Below, piece by piece: positions 13,461-40,000 of a stretch of 40,000 nucleotides of DNA. The translations under genes were made by a program, and so were the position numbers. The DNA comes from Anoxybacteroides voinovskiense (GTDB lineage: Bacteria > Bacillota > Bacilli > Bacillales > Anoxybacillaceae): positions 59,470 through 99,469 of the forward strand of contig NZ_JACIDE010000010.1 in NCBI RefSeq assembly GCF_014196205.1. Reading direction: 5' to 3'. Position 1 is the stretch's first letter. Each line of letters starts with the position of its first letter. The notes under the pieces are model-generated. The model saw nothing but the letters and a program-made list of their open reading frames with translations, was not told the DNA's origin and did not search any database.

Positions 13461-13805
13461 ATGAGAAAATGGCTACGTATCGCTACGATGTCATTATTCG
13501 CCATGCTGTTAGTCATTCCGATTGCCTGCACGAAACAAGAACCAACGAAAACTGTTCGCGTGGCGGAAGTGACGCGCTCCATTTTCTATGCACCACAATA
13601 CGTTGCCCTCGCCAAAGGATTTTTTAAAGACGAAGGGCTTAACGTCGAGTTAACGACGACATGGGGCGGAGATAAAACGATGACAACCCTTCTTTCCGGA
13701 GGCGCTGACATCGCCTTAGTCGGTTCAGAAACAACGATTTACGTCTATAGCCAAGGAACGAGCGATCCGGTCATTAACTTTGCCCATGCAAGGCAAACTT
13801 TTTAA
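13461..13805 (+). pseudogene. ytlA: 5' stub (114 codons) of an NMT1/THI5-type ABC-transporter substrate-binding lipoprotein (YtlA-like), truncated by the prophage junction
   Basis: Lipoprotein signal MRKWLRIATMSLFAMLLVIPIAC. The family-typical N-terminus (VRVAEVTRSIFYAPQYVALAKGFFKDEGLNVEL) ends abruptly after ...DPVINFA. Family members are about 330 aa. Confidence 0.65.
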
Positions 13806-13895: not shown

Positions 13896-14243
13896 TTAAC
13901 CAAAATAAGCGATAAGTAAAACGATAACAAAACACACCAGTGCCACCACATCGCTCGGCTTCATCTTTTCTTCAATGCGATACGTTCCATACGTACCATC
14001 CACCTTCACCAGCTTTATTTCTCGTGGCGGTTCATCTTCATATGTGACGTCATCCAAGTCTAATAACAATTCCCCCTGTTTCCCGAAACTGTATAGGTCG
14101 ATGTCGTTCGGAAGAAATCTCCCCCTCTCGTCGCGCAGGCGGTTCGACACGTCGATTCGTGGCCGATGCGTGTTGTTGTAGTTGTGTTCCTGCAACATGC
14201 TCAGAAGCAACCGAAGTTTCTCTTCTTCGTGTGGCGTTAGCAT
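13896..14243 (-). CDS. hypothetical C-tail-anchored membrane protein, 115 aa
   Basis: ATG 14243 lies 9 nt after GAGGAGGTGAGG. The product begins MLTPHEEEKLRLLLSMLQEH and ends with the hydrophobic VVALVCFVIVLLIAYFG. No family recognised. Confidence 0.55.
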   Translation of the reverse strand: MLTPHEEEKLRLLLSMLQEHNYNNTHRPRIDVSNRLRDERGRFLPNDIDLYSFGKQGELLLDLDDVTYEDEPPREIKLVKVDGTYGTYRIEEKMKPSDVVALVCFVIVLLIAYFG

Positions 14244-14505
14244 TGACGTCCTCACCTCCTCTTCTGTTTTCTGGGCATTGTTCCAGCCATAATTCGTGGT
14301 CTGTCATCGTCCAACTAGGGCAGGGGAGAGGGACGTCTTTTTTCTGATATTGCCTCAACATCATTTGAAATTCTTTTGTGTGCGCTGCGGTGAAAAGAGC
14401 TGCTCGAATAATTTGATTGCGGTCTAAAGTTGTTGCTCGAAACACAGCATCGACATAATCGCGAAAAACAGGCGCGTATCGGACAGTCGGACGATACACG
14501 CTCAT
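14050..14505 (-). CDS. hypothetical protein, 151 codons; the last ~65 codons overlap the next gene out of frame (possible lost stop or frameshift)
   Basis: Protein-like N-terminal ~85 aa (MSVYRPTVRYAPVFRDYVDAVFRATTLDRNQIIRAALFTAAHTKEFQ...), then an R/E/S/T-rich low-complexity tail. ATGA coupling to the upstream 39-codon ORF. Confidence 0.45.
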   Translation of the reverse strand: MSVYRPTVRYAPVFRDYVDAVFRATTLDRNQIIRAALFTAAHTKEFQMMLRQYQKKDVPLPCPSWTMTDHELWLEQCPENRRGGEDVNANATRRRETSVASEHVAGTQLQQHASATNRRVEPPARREGEISSERHRPIQFRETGGIVIRLG

Positions 14506-14621
14506 TTTGCTGACGTCACCGACGCTGTTCCGTTTACAATAGCTTCAAGCATCTTTCTCCCCTCTGACGTCAAATAGACGTCTTTCATTTGTAATAGTTG
14601 TTGAGCTAATTCTTTTGTCAT
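14502..14621 (-). CDS. small hypothetical protein, 39 aa (below the track cutoff)
   Basis: ATG 14621 follows AAAGGGGAA. Product is MTKELAQQLLQMKDVYLTSEGRKMLEAIVNGTASVTSAK. Its TGA overlaps the ATG of the next gene. Confidence 0.4.
   Translation of the reverse strand: MTKELAQQLLQMKDVYLTSEGRKMLEAIVNGTASVTSAK
14566..14582. repeat. tandem GACGTC-N5-GACGTC site (copy 1), inside the 39-codon ORF
   Basis: tGACGTCaaataGACGTCttt, with hexamers 11 bp apart. It has the same architecture as 14647..14663. Confidence 0.6.
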
Positions 14622-14646
14622 TCGCCATTTCCCCTTTCAGTATTTT

Positions 14647-14663
14647 GACGTCTGGGCGACGTC
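14647..14663. repeat. tandem GACGTC-N5-GACGTC site (copy 2), in the divergent intergenic region
   Basis: tGACGTCtgggcGACGTCttt, with hexamers 11 bp apart. It lies 26 nt upstream of the 39-codon ORF start. Confidence 0.6.
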
Positions 14664-14702
14664 TTTGGTACATGTTATGAACAGTTAAACGGTGATATAC
14701 CT

Positions 14703-14728
14703 AAAAATTAAATTTTAATTTAATTTTT
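14703..14728. promoter_or_regulatory. perfect 26-bp AT palindrome (candidate operator) between divergent accessory genes
   Basis: AAAAATTAAATT-TT-AATTTAATTTTT, with 12-bp arms that are exact reverse complements. Confidence 0.5.
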
Positions 14729-14804
14729 ATTAAATTAATGTATTAGAGGAATTGAAGTAATGTTGAAGAAATAAGGTCATATTAACTTTCGGGAGGGAGA
14801 AACC

Positions 14805-15044
14805 ATTAAAGGTGTTTTTCGCAACAGAATAAAATACTGGATAAAGGATAAAGGATTGATTCAAAAACGCGTGGCCGAGAAAATGGGGGTATCGGAACAA
14901 ACTTTCCATAAATGGTGTAAGAACATTACACAGCCAAGCCTAGAGGAAGCTTATTTGCTTTCACGTATAATTGGTGTGTCATTAGAGGATCTTTGCGAAG
15001 TCGTTTATGAGGAAACAAAAAAAGAGCCTGCTCATGGGGAGTAG
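14805..15044 (+). CDS. XRE-family helix-turn-helix protein, 79 aa if initiated at ATT
   Basis: The in-frame sequence from 14805 gives a complete HTH_3-like domain (FRNRIKYWIKDKGLIQKRVAEKMGVSEQTFHKWCKNITQPSLEEAYLLSRIIGVSLEDL). GGGAGGGAG lies 5 nt upstream of ATT 14805. The track start TTG 14856 would delete helix 1. Confidence 0.65.
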   Translation: MKGVFRNRIKYWIKDKGLIQKRVAEKMGVSEQTFHKWCKNITQPSLEEAYLLSRIIGVSLEDLCEVVYEETKKEPAHGE

Positions 15045-15062
15045 GTTTTTCTTCAACAAAAT

Positions 15063-15089
15063 AAAACCCGATCACCATGATCGGGTTTT
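15063..15089. terminator. intrinsic terminator after the HTH gene
   Basis: AAAACCCGATC-ACCAT-GATCGGGTTTT forms a perfect 11-bp stem including A/T runs, so it is bidirectional. Confidence 0.75.
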
Positions 15090-15315
15090 GTATCAATGGT
15101 CAAGCATCCTAATGGACGCCCTCGTTGGAACGGAGCACTTACAGTACTCTTACTACTAAGTAGCGATTCCACGAGCCAGACAGTCGTATAAAACGCTGTA
15201 ACCATATGATACAAATTTTTAAACAAATTGCAAAGGAATTTTGTTTCTTTTTGTCGAAAAGTATCCTGTCAGGTAAAAAACGAGAGGGGGAAGTCTAATA
15301 AAACAGAATCTTTCG

Positions 15316-15750
15316 TTGAGTGTAGAAGAATATATAAATGGCAGGTTAACAGAACAAATTAACTGGTATGACAAAAAGAGCATGCAGGCAAAAAAGCGTT
15401 ACATGATTTTTCAGACTATCGAGATTATTTCCGCTTCCTTAATTCCAATAGTGAATGGCTTGGTAACTGAATCCGCACAGATCAGAATTATTATTTCAAT
15501 ACTCGGTTCGATAGTCGTAATCTGCGGTTCGTTAGCAAGATTAGGAAAGTTTCATGAAAATTGGCTTCATTATCGTCAAACGTGCGAACTTCTCAAACAT
15601 GAAAAATACTTATTTCTTACATCTACCACACCATATGAAGAACAATCATTTCAACTCTTAGTAGAAAGAGTGGAAAGTATTATTTCGTCCGAAAATGTAA
15701 ATTGGTCTCAGCTCGCGACTGAAAAAAGAGAAGAAATGATCAGTCGGTGA
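15316..15750 (+). CDS. SLATT-like 2TM protein (DUF4231-like)
   Basis: N-terminal EEYINGRLTEQINWYDKKS motif. Two hydrophobic helices (MIFQTIEIISASLIPIVNGL and IRIIISILGSIVVICGSLARL) are followed by FHENWLHYRQTCELLKHEKYLF. Only a TTG start is available, and the SD-like GAGAGGGGGAAG is 21 nt upstream, so the start is uncertain. Confidence 0.7.
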   Translation: MSVEEYINGRLTEQINWYDKKSMQAKKRYMIFQTIEIISASLIPIVNGLVTESAQIRIIISILGSIVVICGSLARLGKFHENWLHYRQTCELLKHEKYLFLTSTTPYEEQSFQLLVERVESIISSENVNWSQLATEKREEMISR

Positions 15751-15934
15751 CTGGTTCGTAGGTTTTTTCAAAAATCTCAGGTTTACAAGGATATTGTTCG
15801 CCATGAATACCTGTAATTATCCAATCGCCGGGATTTGCTTTTAAAATGCCTTCCATTGTAGGAATGGTCATCTCAACTTTGGTTTGATAAGCTTCTACAA
15901 TAACCGGTTTTTTGCGAAATTTTCTTTTTTCCAT
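15740..15934 (-). CDS. PGDYG-domain small phage-associated protein, 64 aa
   Basis: MEKRKFRKKPVIVEAYQ...ANPGDWIITGIHGEQYPCKPEIFEKTYE. ATG 15934 lies 8 nt after GGAGG. The 3' end overlaps the SLATT gene 3' end by 11 nt (convergent). Confidence 0.7.
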   Translation of the reverse strand: MEKRKFRKKPVIVEAYQTKVEMTIPTMEGILKANPGDWIITGIHGEQYPCKPEIFEKTYEPVTD

Positions 15935-15997
15935 AGGTAAAACCTCCATTTTTCCGCTTGTAATATTATTATATCATACATAAAGGAGATGTTCTTT

Positions 15998-16426
15998 ATG
16001 AAGACTTATAACATTTTTATCAGTCATGCTTGGAAGTACAGCGAACATTATCATAAAGTTGTGCAGTGGCTTAATGAAGCTCAAGATGAAGGGCAATTTA
16101 AATGGAAGAATTATTCTGTTCCTGAACATGACCCTCTAATTGATCCAAACACTACGTATGGAAAAAAGAAATTAAAAGAAGAGCTTGAGGGTCAAATAAA
16201 ACCAACCTCCATTGTCATCATACTATCTGGTATGTATGCTGCATATAGTGAATGGATTGATTTTGAAATCGACACAGCTGTCTCATGTGAAAAATATATT
16301 ATCGGCGTCAAACCTTGGGGACAGGAAAGAATACCGAAAAAAGTGTCAGACAACGCAGACGTTATGGTTGGATGGAATAAAAACCCTATTGTTAATGCTG
16401 TTCTGGAAAGCAATAAAGGAGAATAA
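15998..16426 (+). CDS. TIR-like domain protein (DUF1863 / MTH538 / ThsB-like)
   Basis: YNIFISHAW N-terminal strand, then IVIILSGMYAAYSEWIDFEIDTA with a conserved W..E(Glu90, codon 16265..16267)..A motif and YIIGVKPWG. ATG 15998 lies 8 nt after AAAGGAGA. Confidence 0.75.
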   Translation: MKTYNIFISHAWKYSEHYHKVVQWLNEAQDEGQFKWKNYSVPEHDPLIDPNTTYGKKKLKEELEGQIKPTSIVIILSGMYAAYSEWIDFEIDTAVSCEKYIIGVKPWGQERIPKKVSDNADVMVGWNKNPIVNAVLESNKGE

Positions 16427-16515
16427 ACTGTCAAATATTATCCCTTACCTTATCCCATCATTCCGATCTGTCGATTTACTATCAAGATAGACAAGGAAAC
16501 TACTAAAGTAAAGTA

Positions 16516-16549
16516 GCCCGCTCTGATTCATCACAGAGACGGGCTTTTT
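16516..16549. terminator. bidirectional terminator between the TIR-like gene and the endolysin gene
   Basis: GCCCGCTCTG-ATTCATCA-CAGAGACGGGC hairpin followed by TTTTT. Confidence 0.7.
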
Positions 16550-16563
16550 ATATTTAAAGAAAG

Positions 16564-17232
16564 TTACTTCACGCGCAATTTTTGCCCGACGCGAATTAGA
16601 TTCGGGTTGCTAATCCCATTCAATTTCTGCAACGCATCTACTGTTGTATTGTGTTTTTTGGCGATGCCAGAAAGCGTGTCTCCTTTTTGGACAACATATA
16701 CATCCCCAGCGCTCATTTTCAACTTCACACGCTTTTTAAAGTTTTCAAATGCTTGTCCATTTTTGACCCACGGCGCAGGGCAGTTTTTGTGCGTGATGTC
16801 GTAGTGCCGTACAATGTCTTTGATTGGGTCTAATTTAAACTTCTTACACAGCTCCACGAATACATCTTCTGTGCGAGCGATTGTGTCAGGATGGAATGTG
16901 CCATCTTTCTCCACGCACATTTCCACACCGATAGACAAGAAGTTTGCATTTGGCTTCAGCTCTGGAACACCCCGATACGTGCCGTCATTGGCATGGTACG
17001 CCACTTCATCAAGAGGAATGATGTTGAGTGCTTCGTTTTTATCAACGAAAATGTGCGCTGAGGCGTATCGTTGTGCCTGGATGATGGTGCGATCAAAATA
17101 CGTGACATGATTGGCTGCCGATGCGCCTGGATTTGCCGTCCAATGCAAAACGAGTTTTTTCACGTCTTTCAGTTTTAACCCCGGACGCGAATACTTGTTT
17201 ACTCGGATAAACTTTTCTGTCCATACACTCAT
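16564..17232 (-). CDS. endolysin: N-acetylmuramoyl-L-alanine amidase (Amidase_2/PGRP) with C-terminal LysM
   Basis: [13 protein letters not shown]...AYHAND amidase motifs. The C-terminal [29 protein letters not shown] is LysM. ATGA overlap with the holin gene. Confidence 0.9.
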
Positions 17233-17435
17233 TGTTTGTCATCTCCATATCCTTTATTTTCTGTTGTCGGGTCGTTGATAATCCCCAACGTAACAAAGAA
17301 CGTTAAAACAGCATTGACGATGGTGTTATATTTTCCTGCATCTATCTGAACGCCGAATGTCTGCAAGACTAGAAGAATAAAAGATGCCAAGCTAATCCAA
17401 AGACCGTAATTTCGTAAACGTTTTTTTAGATTCAT
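17229..17435 (-). CDS. holin (phiLC3 / Phage_holin_1-like), 68 aa
   Basis: [25 protein letters not shown]...[15 protein letters not shown] 17435 follows AAAGGGGGTGG. Confidence 0.8.
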
Positions 17436-17653
17436 ATGTTGCCACCCCCTTTCATCGCCGCGAAAAGAATGGCCACGATGCCGCCGACCACCGAAACGAT
17501 GATTGCGTTTGTGATCGTACGTCGTAGCCATTTTGTGTCATCCTTAATTGCTCGGATATCTTCACGCATATCTTTGATGTTTGACTCCGCGACCGCCAAG
17601 CGTGTTTTTACATCCACCATGTCTGCCTCCAGTTTCTGAATGCGTTCTTCCAT
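17432..17653 (-). CDS. XhlA-like lysis-associated membrane protein
   Basis: Coiled-coil N-terminus (MEERIQKLEADMVDVKTRLAVAESNIKDMREDI) plus a C-terminal TM. It occupies the position before the holin, as in PBSX. Confidence 0.7.
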   Translation of the reverse strand: MEERIQKLEADMVDVKTRLAVAESNIKDMREDIRAIKDDTKWLRRTITNAIIVSVVGGIVAILFAAMKGGGNI

Positions 17654-17670
17654 CGACTCACGACCTTTCC

Positions 17671-17708
17671 ACAAAAATAAAAGCACACTCTCGTGTGAAA
17701 GTGTGCTT
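17671..17708 (-). terminator. intrinsic terminator separating tail genes from the lysis cassette
   Basis: AAGCACAC...GTGTGCTT stem followed on the minus strand by TTATTTTTGT. Confidence 0.55.
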
Positions 17709-18072: not shown

Positions 18073-19347
18073 TCATTCGAATGAGAAACCAAACCCATCA
18101 ACAATGATTTGGTCTGTTGCTGTTCCTTTCAGTATCTCGAATTGTATGTTAATTCCCCAATTCGCAGCTGTTTTTGTTGTATTTGTAAACGAATAAGATT
18201 GACGGTTAATGAACGCTGTTGTGATGTCCTCCCATGTCGGCGAGGTGTCAAATCCGTTATTACACACTTTTACAGATAGCGTTGCCCCTGTTGGAACAGT
18301 AACTACACCACTAACAACAATCTTCTTTGACGCAACAGATGTTTGAATCGGATTTTTTAATGTAAATTTAATACGGTCATCTGTCTTGGTGAATGTATAT
18401 GTCCTTGTTGCCGTACCGCCTTTTCCGTCGTCAACAGTAATTGTGATTGTATGCGAGCCAAGCGATAAGCTCGACCATACACCACTCAAATCGAATGTAT
18501 ATGTTTGATTTCGCACCGCGTTGCTAATCGTTCGAATCGTTGTCGCATCAACTTTTTCTGTGACCGTGAGCGTGTCGCTTGTATCTGTGTCGTTGACAGT
18601 ATAGTCAATCGTAAAAGGCGCAGCTTTATTCCCGAGATTCGCGTCTGCGCCAGAAATCACAGGGGCAGAATTCAGAACTTCAAGGACGGGGCGCCAACCA
18701 ATGTACGTGTAGCGAGAGCCAGACGAATAGTAGTCCCAGAAACGAGCCGAGATGTACCCGCGAATCGCACGGGAGGCGCTGTTTCCTGTATAGGTCTCCT
18801 GCACCCATGAATAAACGCCCATCCAATTCCATTTTTGATTATGTGACCCGTTCTTATCTGTACTGTTTAGCGTTGAATCTAAATCTGATGCGGTTGGGGT
18901 AGGTAATCCGCTCAATCCCGCTTCGTTTACAATCCATCTATCCCACTCGTTTGACGTGGGTGAACCGCCACTATAAGCATCTGTACCGCTGCGATAATTT
19001 GACCCGCCTGTCAACAATCGCAGTTTATATTGTTGTCCGTCAATCGTTACCGTTTTTCCTGTAACCAATTGCTGTGCGTTTAAGTCATCCCAACTGATAT
19101 TGACGAGCATGACACGGTCGCAGACGAGATATTTTTTACCACCGTCATTCACTTCAATCCATTGCATTTCATAGTTTATTTCCGTGTTTCGAATCTCTAA
19201 TGTAGCGCCCGCGCTATAATTCTGTATATTCCCTACACCAGCACCTGTATAAGGTTCTGCGTCGTTTCGCCACGGGTTTGTCGGACGAGGAATCCTTGTA
19301 CCGCCCATATACAGCGTGCCAAGTTTAATCACATCTCCATTCGCCAA
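18073..19347 (-). CDS. DGR target protein: N-terminal lectin-type variable domain (VR = residues 190-221) followed by two beta-sandwich/Ig-like domains; probable receptor-binding tail protein
   Basis: Contains the VR. The VR ends in GWRPVLE, a typical DGR C-type-lectin-fold terminus. TTG 19347 lies 7 nt after GGAAGGAGAG inside the RT 3' end. Located in the tail-fibre region. Confidence 0.85.
   Translation of the reverse strand: MANGDVIKLGTLYMGGTRIPRPTNPWRNDAEPYTGAGVGNIQNYSAGATLEIRNTEINYEMQWIEVNDGGKKYLVCDRVMLVNISWDDLNAQQLVTGKTVTIDGQQYKLRLLTGGSNYRSGTDAYSGGSPTSNEWDRWIVNEAGLSGLPTPTASDLDSTLNSTDKNGSHNQKWNWMGVYSWVQETYTGNSASRAIRGYISARFWDYYSSGSRYTYIGWRPVLEVLNSAPVISGADANLGNKAAPFTIDYTVNDTDTSDTLTVTEKVDATTIRTISNAVRNQTYTFDLSGVWSSLSLGSHTITITVDDGKGGTATRTYTFTKTDDRIKFTLKNPIQTSVASKKIVVSGVVTVPTGATLSVKVCNNGFDTSPTWEDITTAFINRQSYSFTNTTKTAANWGINIQFEILKGTATDQIIVDGFGFSFE
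18685..18779 (-). repeat. DGR variable repeat (VR), 95 bp
   Basis: Aligns without gaps to 20528..20622 with 10 mismatches. Seven of these are at template adenines on the coding strand. Confidence 0.88.
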
Positions 19348-20392
19348 ACTTCATCTCTCCTTCCACTTTTATATACGGATATGGAGCGAATATTTTCTTT
19401 GCTAGGTTGTAAGAATTACTATGGCGTGCATGACCAAGCCAGCTATCAACAGCTTGTTTCACTTCTTTCTCCGTCAGCAATCCTTCCTTTAACTTGCGAT
19501 CCATCGCTTTTATCCGTCGTTTCATTGCCCGTTTTGATTGATCGCGTACTTTTCGATGAGTTGTCCATATTTTAAAACCGTACGCATTTACACCTTGTTT
19601 TAGAGGAAATATCTGTGTTTTCTTCTCGTTTTCTTTTAAGTTCAATTTTGTTCGTAAAAACCAAATCATTCGCTCTTTTAACAATTTCGCATCTTCTCTC
19701 GTTGGTACTATTGCTATACAATCATCCATATAGCGCACGTAATATTTGATACCTAAATAACGCTTCACGTATTGGTCGAGTTCATTAAGGTAGATATTCG
19801 CAAAGTCTTGACTGGTAACATTCCCAAGAGGGATGCCAACTTTTCCTTCTGGACTACTGTCAATAATCGTATCAAGAAGCCATAATGTGCGTTCGCAAGC
19901 TATTTTCTTGCGTAAGATTCGTTTCAATATTTCGCGGTCAATTGTATAGAAAAACTTTGAAATATCCACTTTCACAATCCAACCGCCACCAAAATTGCGT
20001 TCAGCCATCCTCATATATCGTTGGACAGCTTCAACCGCTCGGTGTGTTCCTCGCCCCTCAAGACAAGCATAAGAATCTTTAGTGAATACGCCTTTGTATA
20101 CATCTTTAATCACGTTATGCACAGCAAACTGAACAATCTTATCTCGAATATGTGGGGCGCTGACTAAACGTTCTTTTGGTTCATACACTTTGAATCGAAT
20201 ATAATCACCGACTCGATACACCCCTGTTTTTAATTCTTTCCATAGATTAAACAAATTCACATCTTCGACCATCGAAAACAAAATAGCATCTCTCTTGAAT
20301 TTTCGAGAACCTTTTGTGGTCTGTTTATAAGCAAAAAGAAGATTATTAAAATCAACAATCTTCTCGTACAAACGATCGTATCTTTTCACCAT
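19325..20392 (-). CDS. DGR reverse transcriptase
   Basis: YMDD catalytic box (VRYMDDCIAI) and the DGR-typical IPLGNVTSQDFANIYL motif. Adjacent to TR and Avd. ATG 20392 follows AAGGAGG. Confidence 0.92.
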   Translation of the reverse strand: MVKRYDRLYEKIVDFNNLLFAYKQTTKGSRKFKRDAILFSMVEDVNLFNLWKELKTGVYRVGDYIRFKVYEPKERLVSAPHIRDKIVQFAVHNVIKDVYKGVFTKDSYACLEGRGTHRAVEAVQRYMRMAERNFGGGWIVKVDISKFFYTIDREILKRILRKKIACERTLWLLDTIIDSSPEGKVGIPLGNVTSQDFANIYLNELDQYVKRYLGIKYYVRYMDDCIAIVPTREDAKLLKERMIWFLRTKLNLKENEKKTQIFPLKQGVNAYGFKIWTTHRKVRDQSKRAMKRRIKAMDRKLKEGLLTEKEVKQAVDSWLGHARHSNSYNLAKKIFAPYPYIKVEGEMKFGEWRCD

Positions 20393-20656
20393 ATCGGCTG
20401 CCTCCTTTTACGCTAGGCGATATGGCTATTCATGTGTTTACGCTCTTCGAGCGAAGGATTACAGCTCCCTTGAAGTTTCAAAGCCTGTTAGAAAAGCCGT
20501 AGCTGTTCTAATCGAAAATACTAACAAGACGGGGCGCCAACCAATGTTCGTGTTGCGATTGCCAGACGAATGGTAGTCCGAGTAACGAGCCGAGTAGTAC
20601 CCGCGAATCGCACGGTAGGCGCCCAAACAGCCGCAACCCTAGTGATTACTATTATG
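20393..20656 (-). ncRNA. DGR template RNA region (TR plus ~135-nt spacer between TR and RT)
   Basis: Non-coding interval between the Avd stop and the RT start that contains the TR. The layout matches avd-TR-spacer-RT cassettes. The RNA ends were not determined. Confidence 0.5.
20528..20622 (-). repeat. DGR template repeat (TR), 95 bp
   Basis: Cognate of the VR. In the VR reading frame it would encode GAYRAIRGYYSARYSDYHSSGNRNTNIGWRPV, with AAY/TAC codons at the diversified positions. Confidence 0.88.
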
Positions 20657-33555: not shown

Positions 33556-33748
33556 ATTCTATGATTTCGATTGACTTAATTTCTGGTTCACCAACACCGA
33601 TATATTTCCCCTCAACAAACATGTCGAGGCTGTCATAATCATCATCAGTATCTTCTTGGTCGGTGTAATCTTGGACAATCCCCTCTAATATTTCACCATC
33701 TTTGAGAGTAACTCGTATTTTCTTCCCTACATATTCCCATAATCTCAA
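33554..33748 (-). CDS. small acidic protein, 64 aa; candidate immunity protein for the upstream MuF toxin domain
   Basis: ATGA-coupled to the MuF gene. MRLWEYVGKKIRVTLKDGEILEGIVQDYTDQEDTDDDYDSLDMFVEG. Confidence 0.5.
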   Translation of the reverse strand: MRLWEYVGKKIRVTLKDGEILEGIVQDYTDQEDTDDDYDSLDMFVEGKYIGVGEPEIKSIEIIE

Positions 33749-35202
33749 TGCTTCATCCCCCTTTCTTTTATTAAAGTTGGAACAATATGAGTTCCTGTCT
33801 TACTATAATGTATTTTAAAGTCTTTTGTTTTTACTTCTTTCCCTGTCGTTTGATCTACATATACCCCGATATATTCGTCGCCTTTTATGAGTTCTTTATT
33901 TATCCAATCTCCTTTACTGCTGAACTGAAGTGTACCAGTACCAGCATATTTTTTCACTAACTCATTAGCTTCTTCATAAGAAATTGTTAAATAGCTTGGT
34001 TTCTGTCTGCCCTTCGCTTTATTTCTTTGCACATAATCAAGATAACGCTTATGAGATGGATTATGCTTGTCGTAATGATTTCGGCTATGCTCCAACTTAT
34101 AAACACCATTACGAATATCAGCCCGTATCTGCTCTTCTAGCGCTTGTTCTTTCTCTCTTTCTTTACGTTCAGCCTCGAGTTTTGGTTTCAATACATTTTT
34201 ATTATACCACTCTTCATACGAAACGGAATCCACCAACCCATTCATCGACTGACGTTTTTCGCCGTTTGCGTACTCCGACTCATCGAAATATGGAATCGTC
34301 GTCGTTCGGCAACGGACATGAAATGGCGGCGCATTCGTTCCCGGCTTGTAATCTTTCACGTTATAAATCTTGCCGTCTTGGCTTCTACAAATATCCGATG
34401 TTCGCATATCGAGCGTGGCCAAAATCTCGTATTTCTCCATCCCTGCATCGCGATAGCTGTTTTGCGCAGCCAAATTGTGAAAGAAACTCGCTTCCGTCCT
34501 GACCAACGCTTCAGCGCGCGAGTATGCCACATCCGTCACTTTCACAATTTCTTTCGCTGTTTTGTCGATGGAACGACCAATGATAAAGCTTTGTTCGAGC
34601 GACTTTCGAATGTTCTGCATCGTTTCTTGTTCATGTCCCCAAATTCGCTCGGAAAATTCTTTCCCACTCCAGTTATACGACATCACTTCACGCATCGTGC
34701 TGTCGTCAAGAATTTGCACATTGGCAGGTATACCAGCCATCGCAAAGTCGTACATAAAGTGATAGTACGAGTTTTGGTACACATCGACTAGCCCTGTGTA
34801 AACGTAGTCTTGTAAGCCATTTTTACCGCCGTATAAATGCAGCATCGTCATTTCTATTTGCGCCAAAAGCAGCTCTAATCGCGAAATTCGAACGCGATAG
34901 CTAATCGCATTCAATAGATTTTCGTATTGCGGATTCCCTTCAAGCGCCATCGCGCGAAACCGAGCAAGGTCAACTTCCTTGAACGCTTCTATTTCTTGTG
35001 ATGTTAGCAGCTTCCTTGCCTCATGTAACGAAATTTGATTATCTCTCGCATATCGAGCATAAAAGGCTTCAATTTGTCTTAAAATGTCTTGCTGCGCTTC
35101 TTTCAGTCGCTGCTGCATCTGCGCTAAATACTTCTCAACGATCAGCTGTGCTTCCTGTTCTCTTTGCGTCGCGCGTTGTTCCCAATATTGACGACTATTC
35201 AT
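33745..35202 (-). CDS. SPP1 gp7/Mu F-like head morphogenesis protein with C-terminal polymorphic-toxin-type-50-like domain
   Basis: MuF core (...NAPPFHVRCRTTTIPYF). After a charged linker comes KHNPSHKRY...LVKKYAGTGTL...WINKE...YIGVY...KIHYSKTGTHIVP, which resembles the Ntox50 consensus as I remember it. Confidence 0.8.
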   Translation of the reverse strand: MNSRQYWEQRATQREQEAQLIVEKYLAQMQQRLKEAQQDILRQIEAFYARYARDNQISLHEARKLLTSQEIEAFKEVDLARFRAMALEGNPQYENLLNAISYRVRISRLELLLAQIEMTMLHLYGGKNGLQDYVYTGLVDVYQNSYYHFMYDFAMAGIPANVQILDDSTMREVMSYNWSGKEFSERIWGHEQETMQNIRKSLEQSFIIGRSIDKTAKEIVKVTDVAYSRAEALVRTEASFFHNLAAQNSYRDAGMEKYEILATLDMRTSDICRSQDGKIYNVKDYKPGTNAPPFHVRCRTTTIPYFDESEYANGEKRQSMNGLVDSVSYEEWYNKNVLKPKLEAERKEREKEQALEEQIRADIRNGVYKLEHSRNHYDKHNPSHKRYLDYVQRNKAKGRQKPSYLTISYEEANELVKKYAGTGTLQFSSKGDWINKELIKGDEYIGVYVDQTTGKEVKTKDFKIHYSKTGTHIVPTLIKERGMKH

Positions 35203-39089: not shown

Positions 39090-39500
39090 ATGCATAAAAA
39101 AGACCGTTATATTTATCCAGCCATTTTCGATTATGGTAGCGACGGAATATCTGTTGAGTTTCCTGATCTTCCTGGCTGCTTTACTTGCGGAGACACGGAA
39201 GAAGAAGCATTTCAAATGGCAAAAGAAGCGATGGCATTACATCTGTATGGATTAGAGCAGGAAAATGAAGAAATCCCTCAGCCTTCAAAAGTATCGGAAA
39301 TTCAAACAAAAAAACACCAAGTCGTTGTGTTCGTCGAGGTATGGATGCCACCTTTTCGTCACGAAATGGAGAACAAAGCCGTCAAAAAGACATTGACCAT
39401 TCCTAAATGGCTTGACGACCTTGCGAAACAATACGATGTGAACTATTCGCAGATTCTCCAAGAAGCATTAAAAAAACATTTGGGAGCTACCGACCGATAA
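39090..39500 (+). CDS. hicB: HicB-family antitoxin with C-terminal RHH-like DNA-binding tail
   Basis: YIYPAIFDYGSDGISVEFPDLPGCFTCGDTEEEAFQMAKEAMALHL (HicB fold). C-terminal TLTIPKWLDDLAKQYDVNYSQILQEALKKHL. Confidence 0.9.
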   Translation: MHKKDRYIYPAIFDYGSDGISVEFPDLPGCFTCGDTEEEAFQMAKEAMALHLYGLEQENEEIPQPSKVSEIQTKKHQVVVFVEVWMPPFRHEMENKAVKKTLTIPKWLDDLAKQYDVNYSQILQEALKKHLGATDR

Positions 39501-39505
39501 TGTAA

Positions 39506-39540
39506 AAAGCCTCTTCAGCTACACATGCAGAAGAGGCTTT
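39506..39540. terminator. bidirectional hairpin terminator after hicB, overlapping the last codons of the convergent sigma-like gene
   Basis: AAAGCCTCTTC (39506..39516) and GAAGAGGCTTT (39530..39540) form a perfect 11-bp stem, followed by CTTTT. Confidence 0.7.
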
Positions 39541-40000
39541 CTTTTATGCGTTTTTTGATTTTTCTTTCAGCGCGTTCAATCATCGTCTGAACACTACTCG
39601 ATGAGATACAAAGATAATTCGCAATCTCGCTATATGTTAAGCAATATCCTCGTGACATAAGATACACTTCCCGTTCTCGTTCGGTGAGCACGGATAAAGC
39701 GTCCTCAATGCGTTCCCGATCCCAGCTCGTAATAACACTTTCCCTTTCGTGATCGTCCCACTCATAGACAGGTTCGCTGGAACGGAAATATTTTTGCATC
39801 AGTAACGGGTCAAAAAGTTTCTCGCGTTGATAGGCAGCGCGTCGCTCGATGCCACGTCGATTTTCCGGTCTTCTTCCTGTTGCCAACCACTCTATCGTAA
39901 ATTCAAGATCCGAAATCATTCCTCTGATTATCTTTTTATCTTCATCTGATGCCGTTTCTAGGAGCTTCCTTGCTAATCGCAACGATTCGCGGTACTGTTT
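39515..40000 (-). CDS. sigma-70 region-4-like phage late transcription regulator; the 5' end is probably outside the window
   Basis: LTEREREVYLMSRGYCLTYSEIANYLCISSSSVQTMIERAERKIKKRI is a region-4/LuxR-type HTH. The frame stays open upstream of the track TTG (39982) to position 40000. Confidence 0.7.
   Translation of the reverse strand, partial: KQYRESLRLARKLLETASDEDKKIIRGMISDLEFTIEWLATGRRPENRRGIERRAAYQREKLFDPLLMQKYFRSSEPVYEWDDHERESVITSWDRERIEDALSVLTEREREVYLMSRGYCLTYSEIANYLCISSSSVQTMIERAERKIKKRIKESLFCMCS

Follow-up and report, generated by a model that had tools for sequence, protein, structure and literature searches.

Introduction

Pairs of a TIR-domain protein and a SLATT-domain protein were recently validated as type VII Thoeris, composed of ThsB and ThsH, in a survey of TIR operons (Yirmiya et al., December 2025 preprint, 10.64898/2025.12.03.692087; hereafter Yirmiya et al., 2025). 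Type VII ThsB produces canonical cyclic ADP-ribose (cADPR) only upon infection, and cells carrying the system are killed by supplied cADPR and not by 2'- or 3'-cADPR (Yirmiya et al., 2025). In its model, ThsH forms an oligomer that spans the membrane and has positively charged pockets. Further, canonical cADPR was the product of all three type VII TIRs for which a signal was obtained, and these come from different TIR clusters; both ThsH effectors tested responded to cADPR only. The validated type VIII TIRs also make cADPR, the published type IV TIR makes N7-cADPR, and type VII was inhibited by neither Tad1 nor MoTad2 (Yirmiya et al., 2025). Here we examined a locus of this kind in a prophage of Anoxybacillus voinovskiensis (Anoxybacteroides voinovskiense). 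The locus lies in a stretch of 40,000 nucleotides (nt) of contig NZ_JACIDE010000010.1 (positions 59,470 to 99,469; assembly GCF_014196205.1), which we call the window.

A sequence-only reading of the window had proposed two plus-strand genes, one for a SLATT protein and one for a TIR protein, as a candidate Thoeris-like abortive-infection module in which the TIR protein generates a signal and the SLATT protein acts as the membrane effector. Both open reading frames (ORFs) are present (Table 1), and this division of labour matches the architecture of validated type VII Thoeris (Yirmiya et al., 2025). The pair does not stand as a new system, as TIR plus SLATT is already described as type VII. 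We concluded that the pair is very likely a member of type VII Thoeris and follows the same logic of TIR signal and SLATT effector. The same reading had regarded the module as consisting of two genes. The pair itself stands, but the 248 nt that separate its members, which had been treated as empty, contain a third conserved gene in antiparallel orientation. We refer to this gene as MID.

Results

The SLATT and TIR genes encode components of the type VII kind

The first gene encodes a DUF4231/SLATT protein with two transmembrane (TM) helices, as had been suggested. It matched Pfam DUF4231 (E=9e-26, 90.7 bits; cut-off 24.7), Pfam SLATT_1 (E=1.2e-11), NCBIfam SLATT_1 (NF033634; Pfam PF18181; E=3.8e-38) and phrog_7395 (1e-53). 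According to hydropathy and an AlphaFold2 model, the hydrophobic helices span approximately residues 31-51 and 57-76. The model (pLDDT 86.8) is all-alpha, with a long N-terminal helix that continues into TM1, then TM2 and two cytoplasmic helices; a search for solved structures similar to it found none. INWYDKKS and WLHYRQTCELLKHE, which had been named as hallmarks, proved to be invariant columns in an alignment of 26 homologs, all of which share the start position of the window SLATT. The invariant positions in the family alignment are W17, Y18, K21, S22, E81, W83, Y86, R87 and E91.

The second gene encodes a ThsB/DUF1863-class TIR protein, again as had been proposed. It matched Pfam ThsB_TIR (E=5.8e-17, 62.4 bits; cut-off 21.2), the PADLOC model ThsB (E=4.1e-14) and phrog_6988 (9.6e-34), and was related to MTH538/1eiw (E=1.6e-5). 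The start at ATG 15998 is preceded by a well-spaced AAAGGAG ribosome-binding site (RBS) and agrees with the public annotation. Glu90 had been put forward as the expected catalytic residue. Its alignment with the validated Thoeris TIRs is consistent with this role, and position 90 was Glu in 112/112 SLATT-adjacent TIRs that we collected.

We compared the TIR with the tested systems listed in Table S1 of Yirmiya et al. (2025). It was 37.5% identical over 136 amino acids (aa) to the validated cADPR-producing type VII ThsB of Pseudohongiella nitratireducens (E=4e-31), 30-33% identical to two validated type VIII TIRs and 49% identical to the TIR that accompanies a '3TM' protein. The similarity to the validated type VII TIR of B. 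licheniformis, which belongs to a different TIR cluster, was not significant (E=0.19). The effector is the better guide to the signal. The window SLATT shares 46% identity with its counterpart in locus L010, which lies beside a TIR 68% identical to that of Pseudohongiella; the link runs through L010 because the preprint lists no ThsH sequences. By analogy with the validated systems, and given membership in type VII, the signal of the window pair would probably be canonical cADPR.

One TIR sequence family, recognised by an N-terminal FISH[AS]W, a central GMYA.YS.WI..EI and a C-terminal VGWN, pairs with at least four types of effector, namely the caspase-like effector of type IV, SLATT of type VII, the CMP-hydrolase of type VIII and '3TM'. 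The signals reported for these types differ, and signal chemistry therefore switches inside one TIR family.

No SIR2, SLOG or TM-Macro (ThsA) domain was detected by Pfam or PADLOC in any ORF from 13,900 to 17,700, in agreement with the earlier statement that a canonical ThsA is missing. The same scans found no CD-NTase/SMODS cyclase at the locus, where the neighbours are the HTH, MID, TIR and amidase genes. A literature search found no paper linking DUF4231 with TIR. A relationship with Rst_2TM_1TM_TIR, a system of P2/P4 hotspots that had been mentioned in the sequence-only reading, gained no support. PADLOC-DB v2 is assumed to carry the Rst models, and the PADLOC matches were restricted to ThsB and PDC-M50B for the TIR and to a single weak, unrelated match (PDC-M03A, E=0.008) for the SLATT protein.

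MID is a small, highly conserved phage protein

A GGAGG RBS favours ATG 15934 as the start of MID and gives the same 64-aa product as the public annotation. The stops of MID and of the SLATT gene overlap by 11 nt, and the distance between the starts of MID and TIR is 63 nt. MID is a member of phrog_419 (E=5.8e-25) and is probably a short PGDYG protein. Its match to Pfam PGDYG (PF14083; 1.7e-4, 22.3 bits) fell below the 27-bit cut-off; many homologs 70-80% identical to MID are annotated as PF14083, and a fold search of BFVD returned PGDYG proteins at a TM-score of 0.8, all of them uncharacterised. The homologs formed 3009 clusters at E<=0.001, and the best 120 listed were about 70-90% identical to MID. 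Of the 64 alignment columns, 28 were invariant. AlphaFold2 predicted a small six-stranded beta-barrel followed by a C-terminal helix (pLDDT 89.4). There were faint hints of fusion to nucleotide enzymes, which are too weak for use (the MazG-like phrog_4159, E=0.0036, and a QueE fusion in BFVD). MID/PGDYG domains also occur in giant proteins (P0328, with 3743 aa, P0330 and P0331) as up to 30 tandem copies, in one case together with annexin repeats.

MID accompanies SLATT and TIR genes in Bacillota

To describe the linkage, we write S, M and T for the SLATT, MID and TIR genes and mark their direction with > or <. In a survey anchored on SLATT, 80 genome loci from many phyla were scanned with iterated profiles. 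A TIR gene was adjacent in about 50 of these loci, and MID was present in 28, always on the opposite strand and in every case together with a TIR gene (28/28). The loci with MID comprised 27 of the 29 named Bacillota loci and one from an unclassified bacterium, versus none of the 50 from other phyla. Two orders were observed, S>-<M-T> in 13 loci and S>-T>-<M in 15, and a third, T-S-M, appeared among loci anchored on MID. No analogous conserved antiparallel gene was found in the 22 S-T loci without MID, which are not from Bacillota.

When viral contigs were anchored on the TIR, the arrangement S(+)-M(-)-T(+) was found in 30/30 contigs that had a close relative of the window TIR and enough flank. 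The sequence-only reading had named failure of the two genes to co-occur as grounds for abandoning the pair; SLATT was present in all 30 complete loci of the window's TIR clade.

The loci with the order S-T-M carry quite different TIR families, one BM02/P003-like and one a 197-aa Streptococcus form, and their SLATT family and MID are unchanged. The TIRs of eight of them (L013, L014, L019, L028, L037, L046, L068 and L072) are 60-85% identical to those of BM02 and P003. Thus, MID accompanies one SLATT family beside three TIR families. Since the TIR families vary while the SLATT family and MID stay constant, MID tracks the effector or its signal and not the TIR type.

The SLATT gene has other arrangements as well. 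Some SLATT genes, mostly Gram-negative, lie between TIR genes (T-S-T, and in one case T-S-T-T; L004, L006, L026, L062 and L014). Further, 23/80 SLATT loci had no TIR within the flanks, and the SLATT family therefore probably serves other partners too.

The trio is carried by different mobile elements. It lies between a CI-like repressor and an integrase in C. difficile phage phiCDKH01, Streptococcus satellite Javan277 and Staphylococcus phage X2, and at the lysis end of two Anoxybacillus/Geobacillus prophages whose endolysins, holins and host junctions differ. Among the flanks of 25 genomic trios we found an integrase or recombinase in 15, XRE in 14, ImmA in 12 and S24 in 4. These flanks place the trios in the lysogeny modules of temperate elements, which fits cargo that spares its own carrier.

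The genes flanking the trio run with S and T, leaving MID as the lone opposite gene, and stand-alone MIDs are co-directional with their operon neighbours. We also considered a model in which MID is a resident gene of the late operon around which S and T were inserted. It was rejected, because the flanks follow S and T and MID alone is reversed.

The gene layout appears to favour mutually exclusive expression

In most S-M-T loci, the start codons of MID and TIR are 23-40 nt apart, a distance that accommodates two back-to-back RBSs only. The MID stop lies at -49 to +10 nt relative to the stop of the converging gene across loci. With spacers this short and stops that abut or overlap, there is no space for separate promoters or terminators. 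Accordingly, the simplest route to transcription of T is read-through from S across the antisense of MID, and the MID transcript would be antisense to S, T or both. A class of loci with spacers of 62-66 nt, to which the window belongs, keeps TGnTATAAT on the MID strand; in the window, the corresponding extended -10 element was read from the sequence as a putative promoter. MID is oriented with the late and lysis operon of the prophage, and S and T are oriented against it. This layout appears to favour mutually exclusive expression of MID versus S and T.

The module is low-GC cargo at the lysis-proximal end of the prophage

Table 1. Positions of the module, its bounding signals and neighbouring features in the window
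Feature	Positions	Strand	Remarks
NMT1-family substrate-binding gene, truncated	13461-13805	+	114 aa; profile positions 5-61 of 216
ORFs of 119, 151 and 42 aa, two overlapping	13896-14673	-	between junction and HTH gene
XRE/HTH_3 gene	14805-15044 (frame open from 14775)	+	upstream of module; Pfam HTH_3 3.9e-9, profile positions 12-55 only
Left terminator	15063-15089	both	-18.9 / -16.3 kcal/mol; T-runs on both strands
thsH-like SLATT_1/DUF4231 gene	15316-15750	+	144 aa, TTG start
MID, nested antiparallel gene	15740-15934 (ORF to 15949)	-	64 aa, PGDYG-like/phrog_419
Divergent MID-TIR spacer	15935-15997		63 nt; back-to-back RBSs, CCTCC 15943-15947 (MID) and AAAGGAG 15982-15988 (TIR)
Extended -10 element before MID	15976-15968	-	TGATATAAT; putative promoter
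thsB-like TIR gene (ThsB/DUF1863-type)	15998-16426 (ORF opens 15989)	+	142 aa
Glu90 codon	16265-16267	+	predicted catalytic glutamate; aligns with Glu of all validated Thoeris TIRs
Right terminator hairpin	16515-16548		between TIR gene (+) and amidase gene (-); -21.5 kcal/mol, then TTTTTATATTT on plus strand
Amidase-LysM	16564-17232	-	Pfam scan
Holin	17229-17531	-	Pfam scan
XhlA	17432-17686	-	Pfam scan
95-nt repeat pair	18685-18779 and 20528-20622		89% identical
RVT_1 reverse transcriptase	19325-20392	-	E=9e-21; adjoins Ig-domain tail-fibre-like gene

The SLATT and TIR genes are low-GC cargo at the lysis-proximal end of the prophage. The module had been judged AT-rich by eye, and the computed GC content was 0.355, versus 0.456 in the left flank, 0.444 in the lysis genes and 0.433 in the whole window; only 0.4% of equal-sized segments had a GC content as low. 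Terminators bound it on both sides, as had been noted. The left one is a bidirectional intrinsic terminator that ends the upstream HTH gene and also faces the MID strand, and the right one has a weaker T-tract on the minus strand. S and T oppose the late operon, as had also been claimed, with XhlA, holin and amidase all on the minus strand and the tape-measure, portal and terminase genes to the right of the lysis genes.

The module had been placed between the lysis cassette and an att junction. The lysis genes and a truncated host gene of the NMT1 family support this placement, and the truncated gene probably marks the integration junction of prophage and host near 13,800, but neither an att repeat nor an integrase was found at this end of the prophage. 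The minus-strand ORFs next to the junction had no family match in Pfam, PADLOC or PHROGs. In the XRE/HTH_3 gene, the first canonical start (TTG 14856), which coincides with profile position 12, already lies inside the HTH_3 domain, and the sole candidate start with an RBS (GGGAGGGAG) is ATT 14805. The gene thus either starts at a rare ATT codon or is decaying. In other loci, the left neighbour of the trio is most often an HTH/XRE repressor; the HTH gene of the window is probably context and not a part of the system.

Other features of the prophage

A probable diversity-generating retroelement occupies 18073-20622. The copy at 20528 of its repeat pair has A at 7 of the 10 mismatches on the coding (minus) strand, which is the pattern of a template versus a variable repeat. 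In the related Geobacillus prophage L198, Mtd_N proteins are found at the corresponding place. Further, the head-morphogenesis protein (Phage_Mu_F; 33745-35202, minus strand) has a C-terminal Ntox50 polymorphic-toxin domain (E=5e-26) and is thus a fusion of a toxin with a virion protein. At the far end of the late region, a HicB-like antitoxin gene (39090-39500, plus strand) lies beside a gene for a sigma-70 region-4 protein (39515-39982, minus strand).

Discussion

A possible mechanism for the three-gene module

Taken as a whole, we favour with good confidence a type VII abortive-infection system carried as prophage cargo, with MID as a hypothetical antidote or off-switch. In the lysogen, ThsB, with its predicted catalytic Glu90, would stay idle until an infecting phage is sensed. 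The activated enzyme would then convert NAD+ into a cyclic ADP-ribose signal, expected to be canonical cADPR by analogy with validated type VII. Binding of the signal by the cytoplasmic helices of ThsH would lead to oligomerisation in the membrane and to a breach, which would kill or arrest the cell before the cycle of the invader is completed.

MID is rather likely to act as an accessory whose function is linked to the SLATT effector or to its signal. Its most plausible role, which we propose tentatively and by analogy, is that of an antidote or off-switch made in the lytic direction, so that the lytic growth of the element itself would be spared. Transcription of MID would oppose that of S and T, and the protein might sequester or degrade the signal or block ThsH. 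If MID is an antidote, the stand-alone MIDs of other phages would be counter-defence genes. A broader version is that MID/PGDYG mini-proteins are widespread phage counter-measures against SLATT-based, cADPR-dependent Thoeris, of which temperate phages and satellites of Firmicutes embed a copy, in antisense orientation within their type VII cassette, as a self-immunity switch; we regard this version as speculative.

Alternative explanations

Several observations weigh against the reading given above, and we discuss them together with the alternatives to which they belong. Most of them concern MID. In the survey anchored on MID, S and T were present in 26/80 viral loci only, and MID was alone in 53/80. 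Stand-alone copies make up about half even of the MIDs with 60% or more identity to that of the window. The dependence is thus one-sided: the Firmicute Thoeris pair almost never occurs without MID, and MID often occurs without the pair. Relatives of MID were found in 747 annotated phage records, which include lytic SPO1-like phages, mycobacteriophages and Acinetobacter phages, and the family comprises 22,200 representative clusters. The neighbours of stand-alone MIDs are heterogeneous (DnaB, RecJ, dCMP deaminase, portal, lysin and integrase). Around the MID of SPO1L1, there are small unannotated genes and no Tad2, Acb4, PF21825 or other known anti-defence gene. The invariant residues are all common to the MIDs of trios and to those that stand alone; judged by them, MID is biochemically the same protein in both contexts.

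No clue that identifies the biochemistry of MID came from its fold, fusions or neighbourhoods or from the literature. The MID profile had no match among PDB sequences. Foldseek against the PDB gave nothing at E<0.7, only generic Tudor/SH3-like barrels, with Tad2 (8wje) non-significant at E=3.4. No informative fusions of MID were found, only tandem repeats, a zinc ribbon and the giant repeat proteins. In a literature search, no paper mentioned PGDYG, and the anti-Thoeris papers describe families other than MID.

A first alternative is that MID is a hitch-hiker, that is, an unrelated small phage gene that was trapped in an ancestral SLATT-TIR cassette of Firmicutes and has been inherited without contributing to defence. 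In its favour, the family is very large and lives mostly without S and T, its copies have the same invariant residues in either context, and because all trios carry one SLATT family, a single ancestral linkage is possible. Shared descent of the cassette could explain much of the linkage. In a tree of MIDs, trio and stand-alone copies were clustered and also interleaved, with about 10 switches of context versus 33 for shuffled labels. However, the linkage has outlasted divergence of the SLATT proteins to about 41-52% identity, three gene orders, three TIR families and transfer between carriers. MID was kept in nearly all Bacillota loci and throughout the window's TIR clade, always antiparallel and within a few nucleotides of its neighbour, whereas a neutral passenger of 200 nt would be expected to be lost often from compact moron cargo. 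We therefore consider the hitch-hiker explanation possible and rather doubtful.

A second alternative keeps the two-component system and changes its messenger, so that the TIR would make N7-cADPR or another ADPR derivative and the SLATT protein would be tuned accordingly. The TIR is 45% identical to the published type IV TIR (E. coli 328), which is above its identity to the type VII TIR, and the signal is therefore not fixed by TIR homology. The identity to the '3TM' TIR and the service of the FISH[AS]W family to type IV, VII and VIII effectors point the same way. On the other hand, canonical cADPR was made by all three signal-yielding type VII TIRs despite their different clusters, both tested ThsH proteins responded to it alone (Yirmiya et al., 2025), and the window SLATT falls in the family of SLATTs found beside Pseudohongiella-like TIRs. 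A non-canonical signal is accordingly unlikely.

The third alternative is that MID is a required positive component, such as a phage-sensing adaptor or an assembly factor of ThsB or ThsH, and that the module is a true three-protein system. MID is near-obligate in the Bacillota loci. Further, 3/6 type VII systems tested gave no defence in heterologous hosts (Yirmiya et al., 2025). Among these, BM02 (B. nitratireducens) and P003 (Bacillus sp.), which failed as pairs of TIR and effector, belong to the Bacillus TIR cluster of the S-T-M trios, and L197, whose TIR is 45% identical to the B. licheniformis TIR, carries the trio including MID. In contrast, defence was observed for the B. licheniformis system, which is listed with two genes (Yirmiya et al., 2025). 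In Gram-negative type VII, MID is dispensable for defence, because the validated systems work as two genes, a point that weighs against the favoured reading. Convergent, overlapping antisense placement poorly suits co-expression, and identical proteins occur alone in lytic phages without S or T. We thus consider a required role for MID improbable.

Finally, that the TIR is itself an NAD+-depleting NADase effector and the SLATT protein an unrelated or independently triggered membrane protein is highly improbable, since some bacterial TIRs are indeed NADase effectors (Yirmiya et al., 2025) but these sit in CBASS, Pycsar, pAgo and Avs contexts, none of which was found at the window locus by Pfam or PADLOC, S and T co-occur strictly (30/30), and signalling has been validated in homologous pairs (Yirmiya et al., 2025).

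Implications of a nested MID

With the nested MID, type VII Thoeris of Firmicutes becomes a cassette of three genes in an unusual antisense arrangement. Neither type VII Thoeris nor canonical-cADPR signalling has an inhibitor that we know of. MID is a concrete and cheaply testable candidate for such an inhibitor, and a point mutation in MID leaves S and T untouched. If the counter-measure reading is true, the module would be the first Thoeris cassette of defence plus antidote and would contain the first type VII inhibitor, with defence ON in lysogeny and antidote ON in the lytic cycle of the carrier. If MID is an antidote, this would account for the ability of prophages and satellites to harbour an abortive-infection system and not abort themselves. 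It would also give a function to phrog_419/PGDYG, which is among the largest uncharacterised families of small phage proteins. Further, it would bear on the failure of some Bacillus type VII systems in heterologous hosts, according to the presence or absence of the downstream antisense gene in the clones.

Comparison with known systems

Tad1, Tad2 and newer anti-Thoeris sponges are small, widespread, stand-alone phage proteins that neutralise TIR-derived signals, an activity that we propose for MID; they differ from it in having no detectable sequence similarity and no significant fold similarity. BstA/aba is a prophage defence with cognate self-immunity (PMC8585504). It offers an analogy for MID only, in that a prophage abortive-infection locus includes an element sparing the lytic cycle of the carrier, which for MID is hypothetical. 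The two are not homologous: MID encodes a protein, and aba is a DNA element located within bstA.

In CBASS with SLATT effectors, the 2TM SLATT protein is likewise thought to oligomerise and breach the membrane upon a nucleotide messenger, but the signal generator in the window is a TIR and not a CD-NTase/SMODS cyclase. Type I and type II Thoeris share with the window the scheme of an infection-activated TIR, an ADPR-derived messenger and a cell-killing effector. In contrast to these types, the locus has no SIR2, SLOG or Macro domain, its effector is a minimal 144-aa SLATT protein, and the expected signal is canonical cADPR instead of 3'cADPR or His-ADPR.

The closest system is type VII Thoeris, which also consists of a ThsB-class TIR with the conserved Glu and an adjoining 2TM SLATT effector, without ThsA. 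It has been reported in Bacillota among other phyla and uses the same SLATT_1 family. In the window, the SLATT gene lies 248 nt upstream of the TIR gene on the same strand. The TIR cluster of the type VII system of B. licheniformis is not that of the window. Further, type VII was described as a two-gene operon, whereas the window has the antiparallel MID between S and T; the nested-antisense architecture of three genes in Firmicutes is absent from the main text of the type VII preprint (Yirmiya et al., 2025). The antiparallel MID is a variant of architecture and gives no ground for excluding the window pair from type VII. Thus, the SLATT-TIR pair is a new example of a described system, to which it adds a thermophile prophage.

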